A stretch of DNA of 36,292 nucleotides from a virus (lineage: Duplodnaviria; Heunggongvirae; Uroviricota; Caudoviricetes). The stretch's first letter is position 1, and each line of letters opens with the position of its first letter. Both the position numbers and the translations under genes were made by a program. The notes below the pieces were generated by a model. The model saw nothing but the letters and a program-made list of their open reading frames with translations, did no database searches and was not told the DNA's origin. Of the stretch, positions 1,453 to 36,292 are shown one piece after another. Location of the stretch: positions 1 to 36,292 of IMG/VR virus record IMGVR_UViG_2877285697_000006. One strand, written 5' to 3'.

Positions 1453-1489
1453 GCCCCTATCGTTATAATACGCGGTAGGGGCGTTTTTG
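1453..1489 (+). terminator. hairpin (GCCCCT...AGGGGC) followed by GTTTTT
   Basis: 6-bp GC stem with long loop then T-run, after stop of 1019..1438. Confidence 0.35.
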
Positions 1490-1501
1490 TTTGGAAATGG
1501 T

Positions 1502-3181
1502 ATGAAAACTAAACTGTATTCGTATATTCGCTTCTCGTCTATGCGTCAGAATGATGGTTCGAGTTATGAACGACAAATCAGGATGGCTAGAGAGATTGCG
1601 GTAAAGTATGACCTTGAACTGGTAAATGATTATCAGGATCTGGGTGTATCTGCGTTTAAGGGTGCTAACTCCAAAACAGGGGCGCTATCTCGTTTCCTTG
1701 ATGCAATAGGTAGATCCGTTCCTGTTGGTAGCTGGCTATTCATCGAAAACTTGGACCGTTTATCCCGTGCCGATATTGTCAGTGCGCAGGAGTTATTCCT
1801 TTCAATCATCCGTAGGGGGATAACCATTGTTACTGGCATGGATAACAAGATCTACTCGCTTGATACTGTTACCGCTAACCCGATGGACCTGATGTTCTCC
1901 ATCCTTTTATTCATCCGTGGTAATGAGGAAAGCCAGACTAAGCGCAATCGTACTAACTCAAGCGCACTGATTAAGATTAAAGCTCATCAAGAAAATCCAC
2001 AAAATCCGGCTGTTGCAATCGAGGAAATTGGAAAGAATATGTGGTGGACTGATACCACATCTGGTTATGTGCTTCCTCATCCGGTCTTCTTCCCTATTGT
2101 TCAGGAAGTTGTGGAATTACGCAGGAATGGACGGTCAACCGCCGAGATACTGGATCACCTTAACGCGACATACACACCACCACCAGCCGCAAGTCACAAG
2201 AGGCATTCAAACTGGTCACGGGCAATGATTGAAAGGTTGTTCCATACCCGCGCTTTGATTGGTATCAAGGAAATCTCTGTAGATGGCGTTAAGTATGAGT
2301 TAAAGGATTATTATCCTCGTGTGCTAGATGACGCTGAGTTTTATCACCTTAAGAAAAGCATTGGTGTTAGAGCATGTAACTTTGGAGACAAAGAAGAAGC
2401 TAAACCTATTCCCTTGCTTAGTGGTGTTGGTCTATTGAAATGTGAACATTGCGGTTCCGCTATGGTTAAGGTGAAAGGAACAAACAGACGGCCTAACCAA
2501 TATCGTTATTCATGCGATGCAATGCGCTCTAGTCGTATTGAATGTGTGCATACAAACTGGAGTTTTCGCGGCGACCAATTAGAGAAAGCTGTATTGCAAT
2601 TGCTGGCTGATAAAATCTGGATTGCTGAAGATAAGGCTAATCCGGTTCCGGCTTTGAAAGTACAGATTGATGAAATATCACGCAAGATTGATAACCTGAT
2701 TACCCTTTCTGCTATGACAGGAGCAACGAAGGAGCTAGCCGATCAGATTACTACCCTCAATAGCGAGCGTGAAACACTCTACAATCAACTTAAGATGGCA
2801 GAAGAGGAAATGTATTCTGTTGACTCTCAAGGCTGGGAGAAGCTCGCAGAATTTGATTTAGAAGATGTTTACAACGAGGATCGCATTAAGGTCCGGTTTA
2901 AGATTAAGCAAGCTCTAAAACGGATCGGGTGTAGCAGGATTGACAAGTACAAAAACTTGTTTGTACTGGAATACATCGATGGCAAGACCCAGAGAGTTGT
3001 AATAGAAAATTCAAGAGGACCGAGGAAAGGCCGGATCTTCGTTGATTTGAAGACTATCAATGATAGGCAGATTCTGGAGAGTAACGGGCTTGTTCTGCAT
3101 CCATGTTTAGACATGCTGACAGATAAGAACTGGAAACCAGAAGAAGAAATACCAGGTCCATTACAAGAATTTGGAATTTAA
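1502..3181 (+). CDS. large serine recombinase (serine integrase-like)
   Basis: N-terminal resolvase-type catalytic domain (YSYIRFSSMRQ...LDRLSR), ~560 aa, zinc-ribbon CEHCG...YRYSCD...IECVH; start taken at MKTKLY rather than track start 1487. Confidence 0.8.
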   Translation: MKTKLYSYIRFSSMRQNDGSSYERQIRMAREIAVKYDLELVNDYQDLGVSAFKGANSKTGALSRFLDAIGRSVPVGSWLFIENLDRLSRADIVSAQELFLSIIRRGITIVTGMDNKIYSLDTVTANPMDLMFSILLFIRGNEESQTKRNRTNSSALIKIKAHQENPQNPAVAIEEIGKNMWWTDTTSGYVLPHPVFFPIVQEVVELRRNGRSTAEILDHLNATYTPPPAASHKRHSNWSRAMIERLFHTRALIGIKEISVDGVKYELKDYYPRVLDDAEFYHLKKSIGVRACNFGDKEEAKPIPLLSGVGLLKCEHCGSAMVKVKGTNRRPNQYRYSCDAMRSSRIECVHTNWSFRGDQLEKAVLQLLADKIWIAEDKANPVPALKVQIDEISRKIDNLITLSAMTGATKELADQITTLNSERETLYNQLKMAEEEMYSVDSQGWEKLAEFDLEDVYNEDRIKVRFKIKQALKRIGCSRIDKYKNLFVLEYIDGKTQRVVIENSRGPRKGRIFVDLKTINDRQILESNGLVLHPCLDMLTDKNWKPEEEIPGPLQEFGI

Positions 3182-15601: not shown

Positions 15602-18600
15602 TTATTTAGTTGCTTTGAGTTCGGCAATCTCTTTAGTCAATGCTTCAATCTTAGCTTGATATTTGGCGTCCATTTCCTGAATAGCTTTAATAATCAAGGC
15701 ATTAACAGCAGAGTTAGAAATAGTCTTAATTGCTTCCGGTTGTTCTGGATCTTCGGTGGATTGAATACCTACTGCTTCCGGCAATACTTCCTCCAGATCC
15801 TGAGCAATAATACCGACTTCGCGTTTAATCACTGTGTCATCGGAAAGAGATTTAACTTTATCGTATGTGTAGACTTTCAGGGAGTTTACTTTCTCTAATG
15901 CGCCGTCCTGTAATTCTTCCTTGTTAATCTTCAAACGGGAGTCAGAGCGAATGTAAACATCGTTAAAGCTACCGTTGCGATGAGCATTAAAATCACCGTC
16001 CATAGTAAATTCCCAGCGTGCTTGCTGCCCGTTGGCGTTATCACCTCGCATACGGATAATACCAGTACGCCAACCGTGAGTCGAACCGCTACCCGTCCAA
16101 CCAAACTCGAAGGACTGACGATAACCAACATCACCTAAGTTACTATAGCCAGCGATAATAGGGAAATATGCACCAGACTCCTTAATACTATCCATGTTAA
16201 CCAAGAATGGAGCACGGTCACGAGTTACATCAGAGATATCGGCATAACCGAAACCGTTTTTGTTGGCAACAACAACACGACGGTTAAATGTAACACCGCC
16301 TGACGTATGGCGAACAACATTAACATTATTAGCGTAGGTATCAAGAACACCATCACCGTTTTGTTTAAATCCAGTATCACTATCGCCTAAAACAATAGAA
16401 TTTCCACCCAATCCGTTAGCAACACCAACACCAAAACCGCTATTAAACTTAGGAATGGTTGCATCCTGACTAATAGACAGTTGGGGAGCGTTAATTTTAC
16501 CGTTTACGCTAAACTCGATTGCGGTAGTACCGGGACCGCCAGCACGCTGTGTGTAGAAATGCCAGCCGCTTTCATCTGCGCATTCTAATACTTGTTTACG
16601 AGTATCATTACCCCATGCACGAATATTGAAGCTAGATTGTCCGGTATTCTTACCCCATCGCATTTGACCAGCAACTTCAAGATCACCTAAGAAATATGCC
16701 TTTAGTCCACCTGTAGCCATATTACGTTCAGTGCTGAAATGTCGGCCTTTACTGTCTTCGAGATATAGAATGTTATCACGGGCATTATTGCTGTCGCCCC
16801 AATGGTTAAACCGGAAATAGTCTCTAGATTGTCCAGCACCAGCATCAAGTGTTAAATGTTGACCTTTGATGAAAGCGTTTCCAGCGAATCGAGCGGCTTT
16901 GCTTGCACGTTCTAACGTTAATGCGTCTCCGTTACCGTCACCGCCTAATTGAACGTTACCGGAAGTTAAATCATAAATGAATGGACGGTAAGTATTCCAA
17001 CCACCAAATTTATCATTTTCAGCCGTTGACAGAAGATAAACTTTAGCGGAGTCATTACGCCAGAATGCACCATAATTGCCGTAAATCATACGAAATGCGT
17101 TATGGTTGGCAGCAACATATTCGCCGTTAGTATAAACTACTTTAGTAGATCCAGTATTCAGAGAGATTTGACCGCTTTGTTCTAAGCCAATATTGTTAGT
17201 ACCGCTATCGTTATACATCTGCATAGCGTTAGTATCGGCATTTCCATAACCAACCCAACCTTGACGCTTATTTGCACCGTTGCGAGTGTCCCAATATTCC
17301 AGATAGTTACTTTGTCCGGTTGGTCGCTGCATACGAATAGTATTAGATCCGGCATCAAAAACAGCTTTACCAGTATACATAGTGCGTCCAGTGATTCGTA
17401 GAACTTCGCTAGAATCGGTAGTGCCAGTCGCTAAACGATATACGTTACCTTGAACAGTTTCATGCCAGATTGTTTCTGCGGCTTTACTACGGAATTTACG
17501 CAGATATTTTTTACCAGTACCTGAATCGTTATTCAAACTGACAATATCATATGTTCCCTGACCGTTATTATCAAACATCAACGTTCCGGCCTTGTTTTCG
17601 GTGTTGAACATTGTAATAACACGTCCATCAGTAACACCAGTAGACGGCTTAACGAGAGTTATTTCAGGAACGTCATGTACCGTCAGTGTAACATCGTTAG
17701 TTTTACCATATTCGACAATAACGTTATCGGTATAACGACCGTAGTTAACGTAGATATCGTAGTTATCACCGGAAGTATTAACCGCAAATACTTGATGAAT
17801 ATTTTTAGCATTTCGACGATAAGCCGCAATACTAACGCCTTTCGGGTTTCCGTTGCCGCTACGAATGACGATTTCTACAAAGTCAACCTGATCATAGGAG
17901 TTAACGTTATAACCGTTACCACCGAAGATACGAAGCATTACCATTCGACCAGTTTGTGGGATCGTGGCGGTTGCGATTTTGAAATAACCGCGAGTCGCAT
18001 CACCAGCCGGAACAGACATTTTAACGTTTTTAACAAACATCTTGTCAACTTCGGCTTTGGTATATGCGCCAATTTCAGCAGGAGTCGGTTTATCCCCTTC
18101 GTGATACATTTTATAGCTAAACGCTTTTTGTCCTTCTCTATCAAAACCATAGGTTTCAACACGAGATCCACCAGACGCATAACGGAAAGTAAATCCGCGA
18201 CCGTGCGCTTTACCGGAAGAGTGAGGAACGTTAAGAGTTAGATCCATGAGTCCATCTTGACCATTGGTACGGAAAGCACCGAAGTAATTAAGATCTCTCG
18301 CGGTTGAATCTTCCAGATAGTTACCAGTCTTGCTATACAAATACGCGCCGTGATAGGTCTTTGTGTTCTTCTTGATGTAAAGAGCATCGTTAGTACCTTC
18401 AATACCATCAATTCGCTTGTTGGCGGCTGCAATCGCTGCGTCGGCACTGGCCTTGTTATTTGCAACAGTTCGTTCAATGGCTGTCTTATTCGCAGAGACC
18501 GTACTAGTAAGACTGGTGATCTTCGTGTCCGCGTCTTTCTTATTATCGGAAACAGTTTTTTCGATCGCTGTCTTGTTCGCGGAGACAGTACCCGTTAAAC

Positions 18601-19210
18601 TAGAAATTTTATTATCAGCGTCGGTTTTATTCGCGGTAACAGTCTTAGTTAAATTGCTAACATTGGTGTTGGTAGCATCGACTCGCGCGTTAGTATTGGT
18701 ATTGTTGGTGTTAACGGTATTAGTAAGAGTAGTGATCTTACTGTCTGCATCTTTCTTATTGTTCGCGACGGTAGTCTCAATCGCTGATTTGTTCGATGCA
18801 ACGGTGTTAGTTAAGCTGGTGATCTTAGTATCAGCATCAGCTTTATTCGCCGTTACCGTCTTAGTTAAGTTGCTAACATTGGTGTTGGTAGCATCAATGC
18901 GCTTATTGGTTGCGGTGTCTTTAGTGGTAATAGTCTGATTCAGTTCAGATTTAGCAGCAGCCAGATTATTAGCGGCTTCTTGTTTGTTGGAAGAAATAAC
19001 ACGGTCAGTGTTGGTTTTATTCTGGTCTACTTTCGTGTTAAGTTCAGCGTGTTTTTCTGGAGAAACACTAATTTGGACTACGTTATTATTTTTGTCTTTG
19101 GTGTAAATCACATGGTCCGCCAGTTGTAAAGCGATCTCACCCTGTGATAATTGTTCCGGCGTTGGTTTTTTACCAGCCGTTTGTGTGCGTTTAAATTGGA
19201 TCGATTTCAT
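15602..19210 (-). CDS. tail fibre protein with C-terminal intramolecular chaperone (peptidase S74-type) domain
   Basis: 1202 aa; ~33-aa repeats (TKTVTANKxDADxKISSLT...); C-terminus SDSRLKINKEELQDGALEKVNSLKVYTYDK...GIIAQDLEEVLPEAV fits the auto-cleaving chaperone motif. Confidence 0.8.
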   Translation of the reverse strand: MKSIQFKRTQTAGKKPTPEQLSQGEIALQLADHVIYTKDKNNNVVQISVSPEKHAELNTKVDQNKTNTDRVISSNKQEAANNLAAAKSELNQTITTKDTATNKRIDATNTNVSNLTKTVTANKADADTKITSLTNTVASNKSAIETTVANNKKDADSKITTLTNTVNTNNTNTNARVDATNTNVSNLTKTVTANKTDADNKISSLTGTVSANKTAIEKTVSDNKKDADTKITSLTSTVSANKTAIERTVANNKASADAAIAAANKRIDGIEGTNDALYIKKNTKTYHGAYLYSKTGNYLEDSTARDLNYFGAFRTNGQDGLMDLTLNVPHSSGKAHGRGFTFRYASGGSRVETYGFDREGQKAFSYKMYHEGDKPTPAEIGAYTKAEVDKMFVKNVKMSVPAGDATRGYFKIATATIPQTGRMVMLRIFGGNGYNVNSYDQVDFVEIVIRSGNGNPKGVSIAAYRRNAKNIHQVFAVNTSGDNYDIYVNYGRYTDNVIVEYGKTNDVTLTVHDVPEITLVKPSTGVTDGRVITMFNTENKAGTLMFDNNGQGTYDIVSLNNDSGTGKKYLRKFRSKAAETIWHETVQGNVYRLATGTTDSSEVLRITGRTMYTGKAVFDAGSNTIRMQRPTGQSNYLEYWDTRNGANKRQGWVGYGNADTNAMQMYNDSGTNNIGLEQSGQISLNTGSTKVVYTNGEYVAANHNAFRMIYGNYGAFWRNDSAKVYLLSTAENDKFGGWNTYRPFIYDLTSGNVQLGGDGNGDALTLERASKAARFAGNAFIKGQHLTLDAGAGQSRDYFRFNHWGDSNNARDNILYLEDSKGRHFSTERNMATGGLKAYFLGDLEVAGQMRWGKNTGQSSFNIRAWGNDTRKQVLECADESGWHFYTQRAGGPGTTAIEFSVNGKINAPQLSISQDATIPKFNSGFGVGVANGLGGNSIVLGDSDTGFKQNGDGVLDTYANNVNVVRHTSGGVTFNRRVVVANKNGFGYADISDVTRDRAPFLVNMDSIKESGAYFPIIAGYSNLGDVGYRQSFEFGWTGSGSTHGWRTGIIRMRGDNANGQQARWEFTMDGDFNAHRNGSFNDVYIRSDSRLKINKEELQDGALEKVNSLKVYTYDKVKSLSDDTVIKREVGIIAQDLEEVLPEAVGIQSTEDPEQPEAIKTISNSAVNALIIKAIQEMDAKYQAKIEALTKEIAELKATK
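18430..18960. repeat. tandem ~99-bp DNA repeats inside the tail fibre gene
   Basis: Repeated units visible on the DNA; produces low-complexity antisense ORFs. Confidence 0.6.
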
Positions 19211-25119: not shown

Positions 25120-27024
25120 TTAGAACGATGTTACCCAGCTACGGCCTCTGTTTGGGCGTCTGGCGACGTTTTGACGTTGTGGTCGTGTGATTGGCTTAGT
25201 TTCTTCTATTTGCTCGTTAGATTGCGATTTAGGAGCTTCTACGGATTCTTCGACAACACGGTTTAAGCTGTCTTTCATTGCAATGAGTTTATCCCATGAC
25301 ATTTTTGAAAGAACGTAGCGAGAAGCCGCTGTAGCATACACGGCGCAGTCGAGCGCCTCGTTCCTAACGCCTGGGTTCTTTACCCACCTCACGCCAGTAG
25401 TAGTACGCTTAACAGATTCACTTAAAAGCTGATCGAGATAATCATCAGGAACGGTGTCTGATATTTCTAAGCCAATATGAGGATTATCTTTCAGGTTCCT
25501 AGCCAACATTTCACGAAATGCAGTTTTACCCACGTTAACGCCCAGCATAAGCAATTCATGACCACCTGTGCGGGTAGGTTTAACCGGAATGATCGGAGCG
25601 TTACCAGCAGAACTACCTTTGATAGCGTGTAAGTTCTTCCACTTGCCGCAAATACGGTATCCAGCTTGAGTGAATCGACCGTTCGATGTATCAAGGAAGC
25701 TGGCGAGCATAGGAACACGATCACCCGATACAGTAGTAAATTTGGTTTTATGGAAGTTGATTAATCTATCCCATACAGGGGATTCATATCGTTCACAGTT
25801 ATGATCGTAAAAGCTGCGATGATCCAGAATATAAATCTTATCCTTTGCCACGCCCATGATCGTAGTTTCTGCGCGATCTAATTGCTGGTCAGTACCCGCA
25901 CACAAGAAAATCACGTCATCAGGGATATTCTCGATAGAAACATCTGTTTTGAGTTGTTCCAGTTCATTTGCTTCTACTGCCGTGTCCTGATCGTCGTATA
26001 CCTTGCCTAACACGGTGTTAAAAAAGGATTGTAAATCAAAGGATTGCCACGCATGACTAAAATCAACCACACAAGCGCGAATCGTGCTGAAAGGTGAATA
26101 CAGACGACTGATCCAGAATCCGGCTACTTCACTTTCACGGGTTGCTCTCCACTCGCCTTGTGCTACTGCCCTGATTCGTTCCCCTTCTGTCCATGCGTTC
26201 TTACAGTGGGGGCAAATATAACGAGCGGTATCAGGATCGGGTAAGTTCTTACCATCAATGTTACGCCATTCAAATTGAACGTTTTCCCACTCGATCACCT
26301 GGTGTTCCCCGCAATGCGGACACGGAACAAAAAACATACGCATGTCGCTTGATAACCATTGCTGGTTAATGCTTCCCAGCTTACTGGTCGGGGTACTGGA
26401 TACGACTAATCGGCCTTCATCGCCAAAGGTAGTTAAACGGTTAGCAGCCAGTGCCACCGGATCACCTTCTTCTGAGGCTGTAGCAGCATCGATTTCGTCA
26501 AGCAATCCAACCTTTGCGGTCTTACCACGTAGGGTTGATGGACTGGTAAGCGATACCATGTACAGGAAGTGATTCGTTTTTAGCTGTAGCTGGTTATTGT
26601 TGTTAACCGCATTGCGATCATTCTTGTCTGTAACCACGTCTTTTAATGCATCACATGCTTCGATAGACGGTCGGATCTTACCCGCGAGATATTGAGACAT
26701 TTCTTTAGCGGTTGATTGTCCGATAATCATATTGCATGGATCGTTAGCCATCTGGTTAAACAGGATGCCGTTCAGGATGGTAGTCTTTCCGATCTGCGCA
26801 CTGGTCATCAGAACATACTTTTTCTTGTTCTCAAGGAAAGGAGCATCAATCATGCCTTTCTGGAATGACAGTAATTTAACTTTATCCCCCGCTTGAGGAC
26901 CATCTACCAGCACCATATTAGCTTCGCACCATTCAGAAGGAAGGAGCTTAGGCGGTGGAGTGATATATTTTGCGGCATTTTTAAGAATCTTTTTTAATTT
27001 TGCCTTATTTGAAATCAGTTTCAT
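25120..27024 (-). CDS. terminase large subunit, lambda GpA-like
   Basis: 634 aa; ATPase P-loop region (TSAQIGKTT), zinc/nuclease-like CPHCGEHQ...CPHCKNAW; SD GAGGGT. Confidence 0.85.
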
Positions 27025-27745: not shown

Positions 27746-27979
27746 ATGACTATGACTACTAAAGCTACTCGCGGTCGCCCTGCCCGTTTTAACGCTGAAC
27801 AGATGGCTGATATTGCCTACGCTTACTATACAGCGGATCGCGGGAAGGAAGCGAAAGAACAGATTCTTAGTGAGCACGCTATATCGGTAGCTCAATTCTA
27901 TAAAAATATCAAGAAGTTAGATATTAAATTCTATGTTCAGATTGGCGACGGTCAAATCGTAGAAGCAACAGGTTTTTGA
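27746..27979 (+). CDS. small DNA-binding-like protein (77 aa), paralog of 31027..31209
   Basis: N-terminal RGRPARF motif; aligns along its length with the 60-aa ORF at 31027. Confidence 0.45.
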   Translation: MTMTTKATRGRPARFNAEQMADIAYAYYTADRGKEAKEQILSEHAISVAQFYKNIKKLDIKFYVQIGDGQIVEATGF

Positions 27980-28123: not shown

Positions 28124-28921
28124 TTACAGTCCGAAGTGTTCTAGCGATCCAACATTCTGACGAATCATGATAGTCGCTTTATTCTGAATCATGATCGTGT
28201 TATTCGGTTTAGGCAGTGTCAAAGCTGCTTTTTGTTCTTCTTCAAGAACACCCAATTCAACCAGCACCGGAAGCACATCAACAGTGAAAGAAAGTTGATA
28301 GTGAGCGTTCATGCTACAAAACGGTATCGCGGAATCATTAGCAACATACCCACACGGCTTGTTATTTTCATCATAGACGCGCTCAATGTATCCGGCAGTA
28401 CGTAAGGCCGTCAGTGCTTCTTTAACCTTCGTAGCGCCCTTTTTAGCACCTAACAGACGCGTCATTGAATGGCTATCTACGGATTTGCGATGATGTAGAG
28501 TAATCAGTTGCTTGTTCTCGCGAGTTTTCTTTAACGCCAGTTCGATCCAGTCGGTTTCTTCAAAGTCTGCATACGGGTTAACAGCTAAACGTTCCTGACG
28601 CAGTTTTTCATTTTCTTCTTTCAGTCGTTTCCATTCCTGAATAACAATCATTCGACGCTTAACATCGTAACCAGTGACAAGAGTCAGTGTCAGTTCTTCG
28701 TCAAGGTGATATTCGGTTTGTTCGCGTCCATATTGGTCAAAAAAGATGCGTCCAAATTTGGACTCATCTAATTCAAGAGAAGTAAGCATATTTTTAATAT
28801 CACGTTTAACATGCTTATGCTCTTTTTTGGTAAATTCAGCAATCTGACGAGAAGACATGGTCAGCGGTTTGGTGTTATCAACAACCAGAGACACGGAAGC
28901 AGTTTTAACAGCAGTATTCAT
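28124..28921 (-). CDS. phage regulatory protein Rha / antirepressor-like
   Basis: N-terminal SSRQIAEFTKKEHKHVKRDIKNML fits the Rha-family pattern. Confidence 0.65.
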   Translation of the reverse strand: MNTAVKTASVSLVVDNTKPLTMSSRQIAEFTKKEHKHVKRDIKNMLTSLELDESKFGRIFFDQYGREQTEYHLDEELTLTLVTGYDVKRRMIVIQEWKRLKEENEKLRQERLAVNPYADFEETDWIELALKKTRENKQLITLHHRKSVDSHSMTRLLGAKKGATKVKEALTALRTAGYIERVYDENNKPCGYVANDSAIPFCSMNAHYQLSFTVDVLPVLVELGVLEEEQKAALTLPKPNNTIMIQNKATIMIRQNVGSLEHFGL

Positions 28922-29316: not shown

Positions 29317-29784
29317 TTACAGCATTTCTAAGCCTTCATCGTAGCCGTAGAAGCTATTGTGAGAAGAAAAACAGATTGGTGCGTAGTCTTCGTCTTCCTC
29401 GTCTTCTTCATCTTGTTCTGGGGCTTCCTGAGCGGTTTCTTTGCCGTAGTTAAACATTGCTTCATCCAGTTCATAGACAGTAACGAAGCTACCTAAATCA
29501 ATGTCACCTGACCGGACTTGAAACGGCAGATCATCACGAACAATAATTGCTGGTAGATTCTGGTATTTCAGGCGTTCTTCATCGGTGAAGCAGTTAACAA
29601 CGATGGTAGGACGTTTATTTCTTCCGAAAACATACCATGCACTAGAGAAATGGGATTCATCGGTATTGTAAAGGATGTTATAACCACGTTCACGGAACAT
29701 CTTCATTAACTTGTCATTGTGAAAGCTATCTGCATCCAGACCCAGAAGGATAAAAGGAGTAGTGGTAGTCATTTTGTGGTTCAT
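29317..29784 (-). CDS. hypothetical protein with acidic C-terminal tail
   Basis: Start chosen at MNHKMTTTT with SD AGAGGA; track ORF extends to 29814. Confidence 0.5.
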   Translation of the reverse strand: MNHKMTTTTPFILLGLDADSFHNDKLMKMFRERGYNILYNTDESHFSSAWYVFGRNKRPTIVVNCFTDEERLKYQNLPAIIVRDDLPFQVRSGDIDLGSFVTVYELDEAMFNYGKETAQEAPEQDEEDEEDEDYAPICFSSHNSFYGYDEGLEML

Positions 29785-30360
29785 AGTGGAATCCTCTAAA
29801 AGAAAGTGAATCAAAGTAATTCTGATATTATTTATAAGAGAAAATTCTTGATGATTTTGGAAGGGATGGATTCAGTCGGCTTCGCCTCCTTCATAGATTT
29901 GATTAAAAGACCAGCAAACGTAACTCGGATCTTATAGTTAATATAGTTATCTTTGAAGAAATAATAATCAGGAAGCAATTTCAGCAACCGCAGGTTGCGA
30001 TCCCGAAGGGATAACCAATACCTTTCTAGAAAGTGATTGTTACTCACTTCGTTCGTTTACTAGAATCAGTTATCATCTAGTATTAAATCCCTTTCTAAGA
30101 AAATCCTTTCAAAAGTGAGTGAACGCCGTAGGCGTGAACGTGAGCGAAGCGAACTATCCAATCCCTTTCGAATCCTGCTTGCAGGTCTTAGAAGGTGTTG
30201 GTGGGCGCTACGCGCACGGCTACGCCGTATTCTTTTTGCGAGATCTTTCTTGAACGTAGTGAGAGAAAGCGAGCAAAAAGGAGAACGTTAGTTCGAATTT
30301 TATATTCTATGGTCTGTGGGGTATAATCCCTTTCAAGATCATGCACTTACGTTATTGAAG

Positions 30361-30460
30361 TGTAGGGTTAGTGTAGGTGTGTAGGTTTCATAGAGTAGGT
30401 TTACTGGCTAGTGTAGTGTAGGCCAATCCCTTTAAAGTGTAGGTGTGTAGTGTAGGTTTT
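30361..30460. repeat. cluster of about 7 direct GTGTAGG(T) iteron-like repeats
   Basis: Same-orientation repeats within 100 bp in a noncoding region, followed by an AT-rich stretch. Confidence 0.55.
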
Positions 30461-30654
30461 CTATCAAAATTTTTGACAAAAAATTCTTGTATATTATTTA
30501 ACCAAAAAATCACCAAAAAGCGGCGTAAACTCATGATTTAAAAGTGATTTTCAAAAGATCTCCGTGCCATAATAGGTTATAAAGGTTGATAATCATTATC
30601 TGCCATTTTCAAACAAAAATTTTGATACACTTTTCTCGCTTAGGTCATGGGCAT

Positions 30655-30682
30655 TGACAAGTGTCAAGAACTATTTTATACT
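30655..30682 (+). promoter_or_regulatory. strong sigma70-like promoter (TTGACA - 16 nt - TATACT)
   Basis: Consensus -35, near-consensus -10; -35 embedded in palindrome TTGACAagTGTCAA. Confidence 0.6.
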
Positions 30683-31026
30683 TTTTCTCACTGGTAGGGG
30701 TTGAAATTTTCCAAACAATCCCCATATAGATGATAAGCATGATTTTTTCGTGTATAAATACATGCATGAAAAATGATTGTTCACTTCTGAAAACCTCCTG
30801 ACTCACTGTTAACTCATACAGCACTGGTTAGATACACAGTGCTTTTTCGGTTGAATATTGTACGGATTGATTAATTATTAATCTTCTCTTTAGCAATTCG
30901 TGCTCCCACTGATCGGATATACAGTGGTTTTACAGAGTTTTTGAAAATCATTTTTATAAATAGAATTGTTCAGAGCGAAAAGCTCTTTTTAAAGAAATCA
31001 TTATTCCAGATTTAGGAGGATTCAAG

Positions 31027-31209
31027 ATGGCACGACCTGTTAAGTTCACTCGTGAAATCGTTTTAGAAATGGCAAAGCGTTATTTTGAACTGACACCTGA
31101 TGTAGTGATGGGTGATTGGTTTAAAGGTGAAGGCATTGATCAATCAACCTTCCATAAACTTTTAAAGAAGTATGAAATTCGCGTAAAGATTACCGCCGAG
31201 GTGTGGTAA
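31027..31209 (+). CDS. small DNA-binding-like protein (60 aa), paralog of 27746..27979
   Basis: SD AGGAGG upstream; MARPVKFTRE... aligns with the 77-aa protein. Confidence 0.45.
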   Translation: MARPVKFTREIVLEMAKRYFELTPDVVMGDWFKGEGIDQSTFHKLLKKYEIRVKITAEVW

Positions 31210-31325: not shown

Positions 31326-32327
31326 ATGAAAAATTCTAAGCGCATCACCTTCAACCTGTTCATTAAATCCAACGGCAAACTGAACATTACCGTTATGGAA
31401 GGTAAAGCAAGCAAACAAGACAAATCCTTTGAAGTAGTTTCCGGTAAGACTCTGACCGAAATGCGTCAAAATGCTGGCATCAAAGACGGTGCTGAATGGC
31501 AGATCACTAACCGTTTCGACAAACGTCACGTTAAACCTACACTGGTAGAAGGTGAATCCGTTTATTGCTTCGCTCGTGCTGTTAAAGCCGATGAGACTTA
31601 CTATCTCGCTGTTATTAAAACTGCTTCCGGCTTCCGTGCTGTAATGCATCACAAGAGCAAGCGTAACGAATACGGCGTAGAGACCCAGGAAGTTGCAAAA
31701 CGCTTCCGTACTGTTGCTACTGAATCCACTGTAAAGGATGTTTCTGGTACTGTTAACACCGCTAAAGGCGGTTCCTTCTACAACCACGCATTACAGGTTA
31801 CTTCCTCCTTCTTCTGCAAAAAAGAAGCTGTGAAAGAAGTTGCTCCGGTAGTAGTTGAAGAAGTTAAAGAAGAAGTTGCAGTGGTTGAATCTTCCGAAGT
31901 TGAAGCACTGAAAGCACGCATCGCTGAACTGGAAGCTGAAAACGCATCTCTGAAAGCTGAACTGGCAGCACAGGAAACCACTTTCGAAGTAGCAGCGGTT
32001 GAAGTTGAAGCAGTTGAAGAAAAATCCATTGATGAAGAACTGGAAGAACTCCTTAACTATCGCTGGGGTAACGGTGAAGAAGTAGAACAGGAAGAACAGA
32101 AAGAAGCTGATCCGGTAGTAGTTCCGGTTGAAGCAGAATCCGCACCAGTTACTAACTTTGAAACACTGCGCAATAACTTTATGGCTAAATTCAAAACTAG
32201 CTGGGAAGATACCGAAGAAGAACAAGAAGAGATTGATGTAAACGAAGACGAGATCCGCGAAGCACAGATGGCACTGCATGACGCTATCTATGACACCAAC
32301 TACAGCGCCTACGCATACGCAGCTTAA
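31326..32327 (+). CDS. highly acidic protein with coiled-coil segment (333 aa), function unknown
   Basis: Strong high-expression codon bias; SD CAGGAG; glutamate-rich C-terminal half. Confidence 0.6.
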   Translation: MKNSKRITFNLFIKSNGKLNITVMEGKASKQDKSFEVVSGKTLTEMRQNAGIKDGAEWQITNRFDKRHVKPTLVEGESVYCFARAVKADETYYLAVIKTASGFRAVMHHKSKRNEYGVETQEVAKRFRTVATESTVKDVSGTVNTAKGGSFYNHALQVTSSFFCKKEAVKEVAPVVVEEVKEEVAVVESSEVEALKARIAELEAENASLKAELAAQETTFEVAAVEVEAVEEKSIDEELEELLNYRWGNGEEVEQEEQKEADPVVVPVEAESAPVTNFETLRNNFMAKFKTSWEDTEEEQEEIDVNEDEIREAQMALHDAIYDTNYSAYAYAA

Positions 32328-32342
32328 TAGAGGGGTGAATCT

Positions 32343-32585
32343 ATGATGAATCAAAACAAAGAATTTCTGGGTAACTTGATGTTAGAAATTATCAAAATGA
32401 AAGAAAGAATGGTAGCGATGGAATCAGAGATTAAAACTCTTAAAGCTGATAATAAGGCGTTGAGAAAGTCCTTAAAGCTGATTGATGAGACTAATGCGGT
32501 TATGATGGATCATGTATTTCCTGAGTGGCGAAATGAAACTAAACCTACACAACATAAGAAACCTACACTTCGAATTGTTGCATAA
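32343..32585 (+). CDS. small coiled-coil protein (80 aa)
   Basis: ORF; followed by two stable CGAA-loop hairpins. Confidence 0.5.
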   Translation: MMNQNKEFLGNLMLEIIKMKERMVAMESEIKTLKADNKALRKSLKLIDETNAVMMDHVFPEWRNETKPTQHKKPTLRIVA

Positions 32586-33241: not shown

Positions 33242-34535
33242 CTGAGGAATCCCCAGAAAACAAGACAGGCATAGTGAGATGTGATCTAATTGATTGTGCT
33301 AACAATTTCAAGGAGATCACCACTATGCCTGCACGTTCATTATGCCAAAATTTCCTTAACAACATACTGGCCCCTTTGCATCTTTACCGTCAAAAATCAC
33401 TGATTGACGCAACTAATGCTGTAATAAATGGCGCTTCCCTCACACTTACCAGTATCGGGCGTCATTTAACCGGTACGGCATCAGTTAAAAACAAAATAAA
33501 GCGGGTGGATCGACTGTTGGGGAATCGACATTTGCAAAATGAGGTTTCCACCATTTTTCAGCGAATTACCCAAAAGATTACGCGGGGAATGTCTCGTGTT
33601 GTGATACTCATTGACTGGAGTGCTTATCATGCCTCTCGTTTTCAGCTTTTGCGGGCAAGCCTGGCATGTGACGGGCGTTCTTTACCGTTGATGAGTTGTG
33701 TCGTTCCATCATCACAGACAGCGAATGCAGATGTACATGAGCGTTTTCTGGAATCGCTTGCTGAGTGCTTTTCCCCCGGGACTGATGTCATTGTTATTAC
33801 AGATGCCGGTTTTCAGGGGCGATGGTTCCAACAGCTCCGCTCCCGTGGCTGGACCTATATTTGCCGGGTACTGGGCAATCATTATTACAATGTTGGTAAT
33901 GGCTGGGAAAAGGTGTCGGACTCAGGCACAAAAGCATCAACGACAGCAATTTATTTAGGTGAAGGCCTGCTGGGTCGAGATAAAAATGCACAACATGAAG
34001 GGCATTTTTATCTTTATAAAAGTAAGCCTAAAGGTCGTAGATTTAAACGCTCGAAGGAAAGAGCAACCAGACCATCGGTGACGGCTAAAGCTCGTACTGC
34101 CGGGAAATCACCATGGTTTATTTTCACAAACAGTACTGAGTTATCGCCAAAACAGGTAATGAAATTATACAGCCGTAGAATGCAAATTGAGCAAAATTTC
34201 AGGGATGAAAAAAATCCTCGCTGGGGATTTGGACTACGGTTTGGTGCCAGTCATTCATCCGGGCGGGTCACGGTATTGAGTCTGAGCGCAACATTAGCCA
34301 GTATCATTATGTGGTTAAGCGGTTTCAGCCTGGAAAACAAAGGGATACATCATAAATATCAGGCAAATACAGTGAAGCACAGGCGAGTCATCTCGCTATT
34401 AAAACTGGCGGAGAATGTGATTCGACATTCTCCACTCATACTAAACACACTGTCACTTGACGCAGGGCTGAAAGTTCTACAGCAACGGTATACCAATATG
34501 ATAATGGTTTACTAAATTTTCTGGGGATCCCTCAG
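33242..34535 (+). mobile_element. IS10-like insertion sequence (IS4 family), about 1.29 kb
   Basis: Terminal inverted repeats CTGAGGAATCCCCAGAAAA (left) and CTGAGGGATCCCCAGAAAA (right, reverse complement), 19/19 with 1 mismatch; flanking direct repeat GGGTGATTCC at 33232-33241 and 34536-34545 (9-bp TSD with 1-bp ambiguity). Confidence 0.85.
33325..34515 (+). CDS. IS10-type DDE transposase
   Basis: N-terminal region ...KNKIKRVDRLLGNRHL closely matches the IS10 transposase as recalled (IKRIDRLLGNRHL); SD AAGGAG; start at MPARSL rather than track start 33274. Confidence 0.85.
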   Translation: MPARSLCQNFLNNILAPLHLYRQKSLIDATNAVINGASLTLTSIGRHLTGTASVKNKIKRVDRLLGNRHLQNEVSTIFQRITQKITRGMSRVVILIDWSAYHASRFQLLRASLACDGRSLPLMSCVVPSSQTANADVHERFLESLAECFSPGTDVIVITDAGFQGRWFQQLRSRGWTYICRVLGNHYYNVGNGWEKVSDSGTKASTTAIYLGEGLLGRDKNAQHEGHFYLYKSKPKGRRFKRSKERATRPSVTAKARTAGKSPWFIFTNSTELSPKQVMKLYSRRMQIEQNFRDEKNPRWGFGLRFGASHSSGRVTVLSLSATLASIIMWLSGFSLENKGIHHKYQANTVKHRRVISLLKLAENVIRHSPLILNTLSLDAGLKVLQQRYTNMIMVY

Positions 34536-34599: not shown

Positions 34600-35154
34600 T
34601 TAAGACACATCAAATTCATCGTCTTCTTCTGGTTCTTGTTCCGGTTCATCCATTAATGGTAATTCTTCTTCCTCGTCTTCTCCCAAATCTGCATTTTCGA
34701 ACAAGTCCCCTACTTCATTTAAACGACGCTCGATAATCTCTCTTAGCTTATTCTTCAATGTTTTCTGATCAGTGGCGGATTCTAAAATTTCTAAAGCATC
34801 GATCGTACAAATCTGCAAAATAGTCTGTTTCACTTTCCCGCAGTATTCCGCTAGTTCCTGTTCTACATAACCGACAGGAATCAGGAGATTCATTTTTTCC
34901 TGGTTCTCTCGTTCGGCTGCATCTGCCATTGCTCTTTCTCTGCGGAGACGTTCTTGATCAATCGCTTCTTTGATTGAAGTTTGTTTAAGTGGGTTAATTA
35001 CGTTCTTTAGCACCCAATCGCAACCTTCCTTTGCCGGAACACGCCTCGTATTGGTATTGTAAGGTAGTCCCCTTTCTAACCATCGCTTACCGCCACCATT
35101 CAATGAATAGCCATATAAACGGGAAATTTCTGTAAGGGTTAATTCTTCTTTCAT
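34600..35154 (-). CDS. terminase small subunit candidate (Nu1-like DNA-binding protein)
   Basis: N-terminal HTH-like LTEISRLYGYSLNGGGKRWLERGLPY, coiled coil, acidic C-terminal tail; SD GGAGGA; candidate cos-like GC island upstream. Confidence 0.45.
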   Translation of the reverse strand: MKEELTLTEISRLYGYSLNGGGKRWLERGLPYNTNTRRVPAKEGCDWVLKNVINPLKQTSIKEAIDQERLRRERAMADAAERENQEKMNLLIPVGYVEQELAEYCGKVKQTILQICTIDALEILESATDQKTLKNKLREIIERRLNEVGDLFENADLGEDEEEELPLMDEPEQEPEEDDEFDVS

Positions 35155-35269
35155 TGGTTATCCTCCATTAAATTTGCGTAATTTTATTTATTGGTTTTAC
35201 GCAAAATCTAAGCGCCTAAATCGCATTCTAACGAAGGGAAAGATCCAGTAATGGTAAGGGCTGGGAAGT

Positions 35270-35305
35270 GGGTTAATAGTCGCGTAGCGACCGCGCTAGG
35301 ACTGC
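35270..35305. other. GC-rich island in AT-rich leader upstream of terS-like gene, candidate cos region
   Basis: GTCGCGTAGCGACCGCGCTAGG; contains GCGACC as in the lambda cohesive end recalled from memory. Confidence 0.2.
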
Positions 35306-35512
35306 ACTGATCACGTTTTAAAATCTCACACGCACATCAAATACCGGGGTGCCGAAAACTCCCTTTATTTCATCCGTGGAACAGTACCTTTTTAATTTGT
35401 CAAGCATTAATTTCTTAATTTAATTACTAAATCTCATCCCAATAATTGAAAAAATATCAAAAATCAATAAAGTAAGCATCTAAAAGTCAGTCCATACCAA
35501 AAGAGGTATAAA

Positions 35513-36292
35513 ATGAAAAACATTATCGCTGCTATCGTTCTTTCTGCTACTGCTTTCGGTGCTAATGCTGCGTCCTTTGATTGCACTAAGGCTACTACCA
35601 AATCAGAGAAGTTTATTTGTGCTAATGAGTCAATCTCCGCACTGGATTCGAAACTTCATGAAGTATATGTTAAGGCTGTTAAGATTGATCCGTCTCTTAA
35701 ACAAGAGCAACGCAACTGGAATAAAACTGTTCGTGATACAATGATCAATATCGGGCAGATTCAGCCACTGGAGGCTGTATACAACGCTCAAATCCAAAAC
35801 TTGATGAATGTATTATCTAAAGAAGAAACCGCGTCAGAGAGCGATTCAGAGACTTCTGCGAAGATTGAAGAAGAACAACCGAAACAGGAAGAAGTAAAGA
35901 AACTGAATGTTACCGCGATTTATGCATGTACTACAAAATTTACATGGAAAGTTATCGATGGTGAGGAAACAGAAGCTGTAAAAGATAAACTCTACGGAAA
36001 CAAAACTTTTGATAATAACGGCGGTAAACTTAAGATCAAAATGGTAGACGATGTTCCTGTATCTTTTGTGTATTCCGACAAGTATGATGTTTATAAATCA
36101 AGTCTCAAGCCATCTAAAGAGAATCCAAACGCAATGGAAGGTAAATCCAAACAGGATGCTATTGGACGTGTTAACACTTATAACATCTGGGTAAGCAAAA
36201 AAGGTGACATGCGTCTTGAAGTAATTGAACCAAAATTTGATTCTGAATATAAACACACTCAATTTGCATGTGACATGGTAGACGCAGAGTAA
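35513..36292 (+). CDS. secreted DUF1311/LprI-like protein (259 aa)
   Basis: Signal peptide MKNIIAAIVLSATAFGANA then ASFDCTKATTKSEKFICANESISALDSKLHEVY, fitting the LprI N-terminal domain pattern. Confidence 0.6.
   Translation: MKNIIAAIVLSATAFGANAASFDCTKATTKSEKFICANESISALDSKLHEVYVKAVKIDPSLKQEQRNWNKTVRDTMINIGQIQPLEAVYNAQIQNLMNVLSKEETASESDSETSAKIEEEQPKQEEVKKLNVTAIYACTTKFTWKVIDGEETEAVKDKLYGNKTFDNNGGKLKIKMVDDVPVSFVYSDKYDVYKSSLKPSKENPNAMEGKSKQDAIGRVNTYNIWVSKKGDMRLEVIEPKFDSEYKHTQFACDMVDAE

Follow-up and report, generated by a model that had tools for sequence, protein, structure and literature searches.

The four same-strand copies of AATCCCTTT in the non-coding hub of this prophage are real and non-random. 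The explanation that accounts for them best, which we put forward tentatively, is that they are not promoters but arms of helices in a control module made of structured RNA (or of single-stranded DNA). We observed a short word and its complementary partners in a convergent arrangement, a domain with excess foldability, stems that differ between lineages, and a cassette that varies in step with a protein encoded beside it. The folded molecule would probably be an RNA made from one strand of the hub, and it may have a regulatory role.

The prophage and its non-coding hub

The window, that is, the whole stretch of DNA that was analyzed (36,292 bases), is a complete prophage of ~36 kb inserted in hicB. 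It belongs to an uncharacterized E. coli/Shigella prophage lineage for which no cultured relative turned up; its large terminase shares at most 44% identity with that of any deposited phage. The genome layout is unusual in that the early region lies between the two terminase genes (small and large). We recognized neither a canonical repressor nor a replication gene in the prophage, and likewise no phage RNA polymerase or sigma factor. Searches with the hub DNA against phage and plasmid collections, in near and distant modes, returned no match, nor did a 155-aa protein encoded nearby when compared with phages. Scans of genome contigs with the 60-aa protein and with an alignment of the 155-aa protein gave nothing confirmed, PDB and Pfam searches with the 60-aa and 77-aa proteins gave nothing informative, and literature searches on context words or literal sequences found only unrelated primer matches.

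The hub was found in 56 of 5,426 complete E. coli genomes. It is 1.2 kb long, holds all four exact copies and is bounded by divergent genes (a − strand gene ending at 29784/29814 and a + strand gene starting at 31027). Only short ORFs lie within it, with no conservation, and a small protein from 30115–30291 (an overlapping 58-aa ORF) was rejected as a candidate because this ORF is not conserved. Our comparison set consisted of 43 related loci (given L numbers), including cassette types A to D.

Table 1 Features of the hub and of the genes discussed, in window coordinates.
Feature	Position	Strand	Sequence or arrangement	Remarks
Copy c0 (degenerate)	30017–30026	+	AATACCTTTC	kept in all cassette types, spacers differ
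Copy c1	30086–30095	+	AATCCCTTTC	candidate 5′ arm pairing with 30111–30120
Copy c1′ (degenerate)	30102–30110	+	AATCC-TTTC	one base shorter
Copy c2	30160–30169	+	(CC)AATCCCTTTC	5′ arm of hairpin closed by 30190–30201
Copy c3	30325–30334	+	AATCCCTTTC	overlaps TATAAT; variable linker, lineage-specific
Copy c4	30425–30433	+	(CC)AATCCCTTT-A	between GTGTAGG repeats
Partner aL	29859–29867	+	GGAAGGGAT	
Partner	30004	+	CGAAGGGAT	overlaps hairpin H-beta
Partner a0	30029–30038	+	GAAAGTGATT	
Partner a1	30111–30120	+	AAAAGTGAGT	
Partner a2	30190–30201	+	AGAAGGTGTTGG	3′ arm of c2 hairpin
Promoter-like sequence	29938–29965	+	TTAATA-16-AATAAT	just upstream of hairpin domain; weak
Hairpin H-alpha	29984–29998	+	GCAACC-GCAG-GGTTGC	
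Hairpin H-beta	30000–30012	+	ATCCC-GAA-GGGAT	helix kept in 7/7 sequences
GC hairpin	30123–30135	+	ACGCC-GTA-GGCGT	
Two GC hairpins, then T-run	30205–30238	+	GCGC-TAC-GCGC, ACGGC-TAC-GCCGT	terminator-like
Repeat array (iterons)	30357–30458	+	(A)GTGTAGG	6 exact here, at 30360–30456
A+T-rich stretch	30458–30520		81% A+T	directly after array; window average 58%; conserved in all cassette types
Inverted repeats	32544–32568	−	two GTGTAGG	3′ end of 80-aa gene
77-aa small basic protein	27746–27979			paralogue of 60-aa protein
Rha-family regulator	28124–28921			
60-aa small basic protein	31027–31209			paralogue of 77-aa protein
333-aa protein gene	31326–32327	+		orphan N-terminal domain of ~170 aa, then coiled coil, acidic tail
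Small-terminase-like 184-aa protein	34600–35154			link to small terminases by PHROG 57 only

Copies of the motif and the two-block word

Exact AATCCCTTT occurs at 30086–30094, 30160–30168, 30325–30333 and 30425–30433, always on the + strand, and no further exact copy was found on either strand of the 36,292 bases. Dinucleotide-preserving shuffles contained 0.38 copies on average and 3 at most (0/100 reached 4). When one mismatch was allowed, the enrichment over the whole window was mild (21 matches versus 13 expected), with the excess in the hub. The preliminary description of this DNA had reported four copies of the motif in one orientation in a noncoding hub, and both their exact positions and their shared strand were confirmed. 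The trailing C with which it wrote the motif follows three of the copies; the fourth is followed by A.

The copies are not equally stable among relatives. Cassette types A and B, as well as L038, carry c1 in its exact form; types C and D have AATCCCTTC instead. The c4 copy is missing in L037 and L038, the latter of which also lacks c3, the least conserved of the copies; words analogous to c4 are present in the type B and D arrays. As a pairing partner for c4, AAAGTGATT at 30541–30549 was rejected, not being conserved even within type A. Likeness of the motif to sigma-32 −35 elements or to IHF, DnaA, NarL and TrpR sites was judged by eye and gave no fit.

The real unit is a two-block word, AAT-NN-CTTTC, of which AATCCCTTT(C) is one spelling. 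Its complementary partner word, GAAAG-NN-ATT, occurs five times in the hub (29859, 30004, 30029, 30111 and 30190), and with two degenerate copies added, six copies and the five partners complementary to them lie on the + strand between 29859 and 30433 (Table 1). The preliminary description mentions only the four exact copies, not the degenerate ones, the partners or the GTGTAGG array. Four of the five partners stand 2–21 nt 3′ of a copy on the same strand, and the order is always copy, then partner; c0 and 30029–30038 together form a 22-bp imperfect palindrome. In copies and partners alike, anything from 0 to 3 nt separates AAT(C) from CTTTC, a variable spacing more in keeping with an internal loop than with a rigid protein site.

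Word and partner persist at equivalent positions across cassette types and in relatives of 46% identity whose flanks have fully diverged. At the aL position, a partner-type word is kept despite hypervariable surroundings, and it is the exact complement, GAAAGGGATT, in L033–L035 and, twice, in L037. A long-range complement of 17 nt between 29851–29867 and c3 was also considered and dropped, as its two sides do not covary in relatives.

A hairpin-rich domain with excess foldability

Most of the copies and partners fall in or beside a hairpin domain of ~260 nt (~29973–30238, with hairpins from 29984), in which convergent imperfect hairpins are interleaved with GC hairpins. Relative to dinucleotide shuffles, the + strand of this domain gave fold z-scores of −4.2, −4.5, −4.5 and −4.0 in the four cassette types tested, and a repeat estimate gave −4.25. 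The − strand scored −2.8 to −3.9 in the four types, a small strand asymmetry. No unusual folding was detected in the region of c3, c4 and the repeats (z of −1.5 and −0.8), and c3 has no significant local structure.

The c2 hairpin, whose inner hairpin is CCTGCTTGCAGG, is kept in types A, B and D with a loop of 22–36 nt, and its outer two helices are intact in 8/8 sequences of these types (RNAalifold). Five one-sided changes in it are compatible with G-U wobble, so that pairing is kept on the + strand and lost on the complement. In L038, c2 has drifted to CAACCGCTTTC, with a U-G becoming C-G. Stems are also replaced wholesale: four different ones occupy the fixed position of H-alpha (that of the window, GCCCC-GTA-GGGGC in L037, GCAGC-TTCG-GCTGC in L038 and GGACGCTC-CCTA-GAGCGTCC in type D), and two different inner stems occur in the c2 hairpin. 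H-beta is identical in every examined locus with the same left flank and differs in type D (L016); its 3′ arm, GAAGGGAT, can form 8 bp, one of them G-U, with every AATCCCTTT copy.

The GC hairpins behave similarly. The stems at 30205–30238 are kept in types A, B and D while their loops vary, and for the last hairpin, one group has the stem CGGC/GCCG where another has GGGC/GCCC; GC hairpin loops read TAC, TTC, AAA or TAAA. The hairpin at 30123–30135 has an alternative pairing, of its 3′ half with that of the last hairpin. A terminator-like hairpin and T-run were called at 30216–30238 on the + strand of the window. In types B and D, T-rich tracts trail the last hairpin and no terminator was flagged; L038 lacks the T-run.

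Natural variants bear on individual pairs in both directions. Changes at predicted mismatch positions include C to T in c0 of L001 and T to C in a1, and another a1 variant, A to G, turns U-A into U-G. A substitution in L006 and L029–L032 breaks one C-G pair of the c0 hairpin, the type C hairpin of L022 is broken without compensation, and several predicted pairs are broken in L037 and L038. In a formal covariation test on seven A-like sequences, 93.0% of cells were paired versus 92.0% in shuffles (9/500 reached the observed value), with a covariation score of 0.108 versus 0.097 (42/500); this test is only suggestive. The predicted partner of a given copy differs among cassette types and between minimum-energy and ensemble folds.

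No Rfam family matched at the gathering score, and the hub gave only chance-level matches at E up to 5; the C4 covariance model (RF01695) did not match even at permissive thresholds, and a tRNA/tmRNA scan of the window found none. We dropped the idea that a cassette RNA is antisense to the 5′ portion of the 333-aa gene; a single 13-nt complement exists between 30220–30232 and 31668–31680.

We propose that the AAT-NN-CTTTC and GAAAG-NN-ATT words supply the arms of several imperfect stem-loops in this domain, which is most likely a structured RNA read from the + strand; an antisense transcript or a single-stranded DNA form is possible. The RNA would start near 29938–29965 and end at the GC hairpins and T-run at 30205–30238. 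Copies c0, c1 and c2 would be helix arms, and c3 and c4 lineage-specific extras in the linker and the array. Any copy can pair with any partner word, which allows alternative pairings, and the near-invariant GAAGGGAT of the 30000–30012 hairpin could pair with any copy. Switching between pairings could regulate either termination at 30238 or RNA availability.

Further observations sit less easily with this proposal. The word is more conserved than a helix arm requires, and c3, c4 and the exact copies upstream of the terminase gene in relatives have no local pairing partner. As for the molecule being RNA, the + strand promoter is weak and unconserved in most lineages: type D has TTGACA-17-AAGAAT as its counterpart, and elsewhere it is weak or absent.

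A possible protein-binding word near the terminase gene

The main rival explanation, since exact copies of the word also occur upstream of the small-terminase gene in relatives, is that the word is a double-stranded DNA site, recognized in either orientation by a single trans-acting protein that all the cassette types share. We consider this unlikely, yet a serious competitor. The preliminary description had offered the copies either as promoters or as recognition sites for a phage-encoded factor, and while the first half of that suggestion fails (see below), the second retains real weight given these terminase-proximal copies and the conservation of both blocks of the word. Candidate binders would be the small-terminase-like protein of 184 aa, the two small basic proteins (60 and 77 aa), the Rha-family regulator or a host factor, and the hub copies would then be operator-like or terminase-binding.

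An exact word of 12–13 nt, (A)CCAATCCCTTTC, recurs in separate non-coding regions of relatives, at c2, at c4, at the left partner position and at the terminase-upstream site. The last of these lies ~100 nt from the small-terminase gene and 10 nt from a GC palindrome, and it carries the exact copy in L012, L025 and L033–L035. That palindrome could be a cos cleavage site, and GCGCGGTCGCTACGCGAC, near 35280–35300, is a candidate cos site. The small terminase of lambda, gpNu1, binds three R sites, CGTTTCCTTTCT, in both orientations beside cosN. A protein site would also explain why the word is kept across cassette types with unrelated surroundings and why, at the variable c3 spot, AAT and CTTTC are both retained around a middle CC that becomes AC, GT, CT or GC. 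The c0/a0 palindrome is of the operator kind, and in L012–L014 a motif-like word abuts a −35 hexamer.

However, the 184-aa protein has no Pfam or PDB link, and a rigid protein dimer could hardly accommodate blocks 0–3 nt apart in paired sites separated by 2 to 36 nt. Near the terminase gene, the copy is degenerate both in the window (CCAGCCCTTACC) and in its nearest relatives, and the hub and the terminase-upstream region of the window share no significant similarity. Copies c3 and c4 are dispensable in relatives. Nor would a protein site predict the copy-then-partner order, the G-U-compatible changes or the covarying GC hairpins. The partner of a recognition word could also be an RNA instead of a protein.

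Exchangeable cassettes and an orphan protein

The hairpin domain would form the left part of a swappable control cassette, with the repeat array and then the A+T-rich stretch as its right part. The window holds 12 GTGTAGG words versus 2.4 expected; besides those in Table 1, one is at 31536–31542, inside the 333-aa gene, and all type A loci checked keep it together with at least one of the two repeats that end the 80-aa gene. In other cassette types, the array is replaced as a block by other repeat words, and the N-terminal domain of the 333-aa protein is exchanged in step with it (43 loci, five repeat types, no exception), while the neighboring 155-aa and 60-aa proteins do not covary with the array. 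This is best explained by binding of the array by the type-specific N-terminal domain, a prediction made from the sequences compared. The comparison yields at least five exchangeable specificity cassettes, each a repeat array with an orphan protein N-terminal domain, a result that stands by itself.

The protein itself has no Pfam, PDB or PHROG assignment. An exhaustive HMMER search with its N-terminal domain found 7 matches among 1.8 billion representatives and no distant family, and AlphaFold without an alignment modeled the N-terminal 180 aa at a mean pLDDT of 43, too low for the model to be of use.

Another explanation is that the copies are functionless by-products: a hairpin unit was duplicated serially, short words shared at the edges of cassettes recombined, and conservation reflects only the youth of the whole type A cassette or a constraint on it as a block. 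Type A is indeed nearly invariant as a whole from 30068 to 30318, and the conservation of c1 and c2 is consequently not specific to the motif. The homology of types C and D with type A stops exactly at c1, a 28-nt stretch with a copy in it is duplicated in type D, and c3 and c4 come and go among relatives. We nevertheless find this explanation improbable, because word and partner outlast the divergence of their flanks in all cassette types and in the 46%-identity relatives, the variable c3 spot is conserved block by block, and excess foldability recurs in every type.

Still less probable, in our judgment, is that the hairpins form in single-stranded DNA as an ssi-like priming or loading signal of a putative origin made up of the array and the A+T-rich stretch. 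The layout of array, A+T-rich stretch and neighboring cognate gene resembles that of iteron-type origins, folding is unusually good on either strand, and the prophage has no recognizable replication gene elsewhere. Against this, neither DnaA nor IHF consensus sites were found in 29700–31100, the 333-aa protein matches no initiator family, and the terminator-like T-run suggests transcription.

The promoter question

The third copy does lie at a perfect TATAAT (30322–30327), as had been reported, and overlaps it by AAT. Together with a TTTATA placed 17 bp upstream as in sigma-70 promoters (30299–30327, scoring 10/12), this sequence would fire into the repeat array, and c3 may for that reason be a real start site in the TATAAT lineages, including the window. 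In L037 and the 16 distinct type A hubs compared, this hexamer takes the forms TATAAT, TAAAAT, TGAAAT, TTAAAT, TGCAAT or TCAAAT, and the critical A at position 2 is therefore often lost (in about half of the distinct close relatives), making this the most variable spot of an otherwise near-invariant block.

That the copies form a family of phage promoters, with the motif as discriminator, start region or phage-polymerase or sigma element, is very improbable: although motif-like words abut −35 hexamers in a few relatives, no usable −35/−10 hexamers at promoter spacing (16–18 bp) were found near c1, c2 or c4, the −10 at c3 is not conserved, L038 lacks both c3 and c4, promoter-like matches in the region are at shuffle level (8 versus 6.1), and the conserved strong promoter of the hub (TTGACA-17-TATACT, 30654–30682) has no motif copy nearby. 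The preliminary description had raised such a family; the promoter look of c3 is best read as incidental to the word.

Comparison with known systems

The motif gives a handle on the control region of a widespread, unstudied lineage of E. coli/Shigella temperate phages. If the word is a terminase or regulator site, packaging would be linked to early control in this genome. The R sites of lambda cosB are likewise C/T-rich words of ~12 bp in several copies and both orientations, and the exact copy of the relatives lies between a GC palindrome and the small-terminase gene. Unlike in cosB, most copies are 5 kb from the terminase gene, in a regulatory hub, the terminase-proximal copy is degenerate here, and no sequence link between the 184-aa protein and gpNu1 could be detected.

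With iteron replicons (P1 oriR-repA-incA, F oriS-repE-incC) and lambda ori/O, the cassette shares tandem direct repeats beside an A+T-rich stretch, an adjacent gene with an array-linked DNA-binding end and more repeats downstream (32544–32568). It differs from them in that the 333-aa protein has no Rep or O match, DnaA boxes are absent, the repeats are 7–8 bp long and irregularly spaced, and the AATCCCTTT word is not the iteron. An operator/repressor (immunity) role would fit the array and the 333-aa protein equally well as an origin role, and the at least five exchangeable cassettes predict heteroimmunity or incompatibility groups.

The hairpin domain recalls ColE1 RNA I/RNA II and R1 CopA/CopT in its tandem stem-loops with conserved internal mismatches, in its position beside a replication-type repeat/initiator unit and in the good folding of both strands. 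The hub has no sequence or Rfam similarity to these systems, its stems are built from a repeated word that is absent in ColE1 and R1, and its transcription is predicted.

Further parallels are the CI RNA of satellite phage P4 (seqA/seqB/seqC) and the c4 antisense RNA of P1/P7. By analogy, both sides are temperate, this prophage having no recognizable protein repressor, and both would combine several short boxes that complement one another on a single strand with a candidate structured RNA and a terminator, in a region whose variants differ between related elements. Unlike P4 and P1 c4, the hub has no Rfam C4 match, contains many more copies (6 plus 5), adjoins a repeat array predicted to be bound by a protein and shows no sign of processing or of a tRNA-like fold. 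It is a long shot that a lysis-lysogeny or replication decision is taken through this exchangeable cassette of structured RNA, array and orphan DNA-binding protein, with the GAAGGGAT hairpin pairing, both in cis and in trans, to AAUCCCUUU sites, among them the leader of the small-terminase gene in certain lineages, as a P4-like but unrelated RNA immunity/packaging circuit. If the hairpin domain is an RNA regulator made of word and anti-word, it would add a new, non-homologous case to the few RNA-based controls of phage immunity or replication.

A repeated word and its complement in the hub

The preliminary description had pointed to four same-orientation copies of AATCCCTTT in the hub, the 1.2 kb between divergent genes (about 29815-31026), in which no conserved ORF, tRNA or Rfam family was found. 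This observation is correct and non-random: all four copies (c1-c4) were recovered, no further exact copy was found anywhere else in the window, and the count compares with a mean of 0.38 in dinucleotide-preserving shuffles, 0 of 100 of which reached four. The TATAAT described beside c3 is also present (30322-30327), with AAT common to both elements. With degeneracy allowed, the word is AAT-NN-CTTTC, which adds c0 and c1' to the exact copies, and its complement, GAAAG-NN-ATT (the partner word), occurs five times on the same strand as the copies. Four of the five partner words lie 2-21 nt downstream of a copy, invariably in the order copy then partner, an arrangement that produces a 13-nt hairpin, the c0/a0 palindrome and the c1...a1 and c2...a2 pairs.

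Features of the hub, of the related repeat arrays and of the surrounding prophage
Feature	Position	Strand	Sequence or remark
Large serine recombinase	1487-3181		
Large terminase	25120-27024		gpA-type
Partner word	29859	+	GGAAGGGAT
First GC hairpin	29984-29998		
13-nt hairpin	30000-30012		ATCCC-GAA-GGGAT
Partner word	30004	+	CGAAGGGAT
c0, degenerate copy	30017	+	AATACCTTTC
a0, partner word	30029	+	GAAAGTGATT
c0/a0 palindrome			22 bp
c1, exact copy	30086	+	AATCCCTTT
c1', degenerate copy	30102	+	AATCC-TTTC
a1, partner word	30111	+	AAAAGTGAGT
c1...a1			convergent pair
Second GC hairpin	30123-30135		
c2, exact copy	30160	+	AATCCCTTT
a2, partner word	30190	+	AGAAGGTGTTGG
c2...a2			convergent pair; inner hairpin CCTGCTTGCAGG
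Third GC hairpin	30205-30215		
Last GC hairpin	30216-30228		
c3, exact copy	30325	+	AATCCCTTT
c4, exact copy	30425	+	AATCCCTTT
Type B repeat			TTTCAGGGGCAAA
Type C repeat			CGGGGA[CTA]
Type D repeat			TGGAATCTTGGGGATTT
Distant relative's repeat			AGTGCAGGG
Small-terminase-like gene	34600-35154		PHROG 57 only
Last gene	35513-36292		LprI-like

A predicted hairpin domain

The domain holding these hairpins and pairs (29983-30238) folds with z = -4.2, and its counterparts in hubs with the other cassette types, B, C and D, reach -4.5, -4.5 and -4.0 (the window being type A); the complementary strand gives -2.8 to -3.9. No unusual folding was found in the region with c3, c4 and the repeats. GC hairpins lie between the convergent pairs, and the last, followed by a T-run, was flagged as terminator-like; the divergent relative L038 lacks the T-run. 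Both outer helices of the c2 hairpin survive in types A, B and D, with a loop that ranges from 22 to 36 nt and arms altered at five positions; each alteration affects one side of a pair only and, read on the + strand, is tolerated through G-U pairing. Four lineages have four unrelated stems in the first GC hairpin, at an unchanged position, the c2 inner stem and the last hairpin likewise swap stem and hold position, and the two terminal hairpins have freely varying loops. Several natural variants hit predicted mismatch positions or yield wobble pairs.

The anatomy of the hub, the comparative pattern and the co-variation of cassette and protein are observed here. As the mechanism we infer a structured RNA module of about 260 nt, probably made from the + strand, whose imperfect stem-loops would have the word and its complement as their arms. 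The module would be part of a type-specific control cassette, adjoining a repeat array that an orphan protein would bind. This is the best-supported account, and we put it forward tentatively.

The formal pairing and covariation count on seven A-like sequences is only suggestive: 93.0% of cells were paired against 92.0% in column shuffles (9/500), and the covariation score was 0.108 against 0.097 (42/500). Slid controls gave 35-45%, a figure tied to how the structure was derived and hence non-independent. The partner chosen by a given copy differs among cassette types and fold predictions, being a partner-type word every time, and two lineages have uncompensated helix disruptions. The promoter-like site upstream of the domain (29938-29965) is weak, with a counterpart only in type D among the other cassette types scanned.

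At its left end (29874-29895) the hub carries a paralogue of the terminal module at 30205-30238, as do its type B and D equivalents; here CAGTCGG(G)C-loop-GCC(C)TCCT comes after a partner word, its stem and loop reading GGC-TTCG-GCC, GGGC-AAA-GCCC or GGGC-TAAA-GCCC according to lineage. Separately, 30220-30232 in the window, the 3' half of the last hairpin (CTACGCCGTATTC), is exactly complementary over 13 nt to 31668-31680, in the region coding for the type-specific N-terminal domain of the 333-aa protein to the right of the hub (about 0.03 expected by chance in a rough count).

Possible alternatives: protein site, duplication, origin or promoter

The main rival, that the word is a protein site, retains the earlier proposal of a recognition site for a phage-encoded factor, and we consider it less likely than the RNA module, though clearly ahead of the remaining alternatives. 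The AAT and CTTTC blocks persist even within the variable c3 spot, and the word is retained among cassette types with unrelated surroundings. The small-terminase gene of other lineages is preceded, at about 100 nt and in its own sense, by an exact (C)CAATCCCTTTCC, which follows a GC palindrome (GCGCGGTCGCTACGCGAC, a possible cos cleavage site) at a distance of 10 nt; these lineages also have the exact complement at the hub's left partner position. The extended match of this terminase-proximal word to c2 (17/19 nt) is at the edge of the null distribution, and the window's own copy is degenerate (CCAGCCCTTACC, 35251-35262). All these observations fit a sequence-specific partner, which could be a protein or an RNA with GAAGGGAU-type words. 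The small terminase of phage lambda, gpNu1, binds to C/T-rich R sites next to cosN in either orientation; Pfam and PDB searches gave no connection between gpNu1 and the 184-aa product of the small-terminase-like gene.

Upstream of the small-terminase-like gene, the window has a GC-rich palindrome, GTCGCGTAGCGAC (35279-35302, within TAGTCGCGTAGCGACCGCGCTAG), followed by C/T-rich words (35233-35262), GATCTTTCCCTTCG in all lineages and CCAATCCCTTTCC in some; together they form a candidate cos site with terminase-binding sites.

That the copies are a non-functional duplication is improbable, and that the hairpins are a single-stranded-DNA origin signal is more improbable still.

The promoter family also proposed at first had the TATAAT at c3 in its favor. 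In 16 distinct type A hubs, 30068-30318 is nearly invariant and the 35-nt linker with c3 is a local hot spot of variation, with repeated changes at the motif's middle two bases and at TATAAT bases 2 and 3, so that the -10 is lost in about half of the variants. Both c3 and c4 are missing in L038, and c4 in L037, another relative. Because, in addition, no promoter hexamers were found at the other copies and no excess of promoter-like sites in the region, and the hub's conserved strong promoter (TTGACA-17-TATACT, 30654-30682), present in every type, has no motif copy nearby, a promoter family is unsupported and very unlikely. In lineages that keep TATAAT, the window included, c3 may overlap a real start reading into the repeat array.

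The strong promoter (+) faces a second promoter-like site (30758-30730, -), with predicted starts about 30 nt apart, and types A, B and D conserve both sites. Transcription from the leftward one would cross the A+T-rich stretch, then the array and then the hairpin domain on its way to the gene of the 155-aa protein. Just 3' of the rightward promoter, GGGGTTGAAA-N14-CCCCATAT (30700-30732) resembles a sigma-32 (heat-shock) promoter, CTTGAAA ... CCCCATNT; it is conserved even where the right half of the hub otherwise differs (L012-L014). An equally good reading of this site is a hairpin, GGGGTTG...CAATCCCC, whose 12-nt loop varies. Within the rightward operon's leader of 340 nt, the hairpin AGCACTG...CAGTGCT precedes TTTTT (30821-30852) and shows a compensatory A-T to G-C change in L003 and L007; it probably serves as a terminator or attenuator of the leader, or else marks where an RNA of about 165 nt from the strong promoter ends.

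Distribution and gene content of the prophage

No match to the hub DNA was found in phage and plasmid collections. A scan of 5,426 complete E. coli genomes finds it in 56, with 87-94% identity and chromosomal every time, within a prophage of about 35 kb inserted in hicB whose two ends coincide with those of the window. Besides the recombinase and terminase genes, the latter separated by a 7.5 kb early region, the prophage has endolysin, tail and head genes and, to the left and right of the hub, a few small genes without family assignment; no recognizable repressor or replication protein was found in it. There is no close deposited phage (large terminase at most 44% identity), and the proteins flanking the hub have homologues in Escherichia and Shigella only.

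Between the 80-aa and small-terminase-like genes lies an IS4-type DDE transposase gene (33274-34515, 413 aa, PF01609), a place taken in relatives by about 700 bp of non-coding DNA or by small ORFs. Parts of the 1202-aa tail-fibre gene (about 16500-19200) and of the last gene (about 35500-35900) show 78-88% DNA identity to RB49-like (Krischvirus) T4-type phages, in the region of the long-tail-fibre distal subunit and neighboring genes, which indicates that this temperate siphovirus-like prophage and virulent myoviruses probably exchanged DNA. Homing-endonuclease-type genes occur in some relatives, a GIY-YIG nuclease gene replacing the LprI-like gene (L001, 10440-11504) and a NUMOD3-domain protein within the tail module (L010, 20740-21513); the window has neither at those places.

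An exchangeable cassette that tracks the 333-aa protein

The flanks of the hub (29960-30040 and 30470-31026) are common to all relatives, and its middle (about 30060 to 30470) is replaced wholesale. The type A repeat, (A)GTGTAGG, occurs 12 times in the window, where 2.4 would be expected, and six of the 12 lie at 30360-30456; the AATCCCTTT word is distinct from this iteron. The 333-aa protein (gene at 31326-32327) begins with about 170 residues whose type agreed with that of the repeat array (30357-30458 in the window) in 43/43 loci, those with both the array and this part of the gene available, and at least five specificity types exchange array and N-terminal domain jointly (GTGTAGG, CAGGGGCAA, CGGGGA, GGAATCTTGGGG and AGTGCAGGG). 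A relative 78% identical in this domain retains AGTGTAGG, and a 46% relative has AGTGCAGGG. The coiled-coil, acidic C-terminal half is common to the types, as is an 81% A+T stretch after the array, and the 155-aa and 60-aa proteins flanking the hub do not track the cassette. Type A also has inverted GTGTAGG within the 333-aa gene and in the following gene, at its 3' end.

This concordance is the signature of a putative cognate protein/repeat pair, in which the repeats could be origin iterons served by an initiator, or operators of a repressor; the hub was scanned for DnaA and IHF sites, and none was found. A search of 1.8 billion representatives recovered 7 relatives of the N-terminal domain, an orphan whose structure model is unusable. 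Joint exchange of cassette and protein would predict heteroimmune or incompatibility groups.

Six loci (L012-L014, L039, L043 and L044) have a type B array followed by two or three GTGTAGG boxes that overlap a strong promoter (TTGACA-17-TATAAT or TATACT), whose -35 is abutted by a motif-like word, AAAATCCTTTG or AAAGTCCTTTC. Since these loci encode the type B protein only, the boxes may answer a co-resident type A prophage or be relics. The type C repeats (L009 and L017-L022), GCGGGGATAA and ACGGGGAT, are similar to the E. coli CRISPR repeat of type I-E in its 3' half (…CGGGGATAAACCG), a likeness that is probably coincidental.
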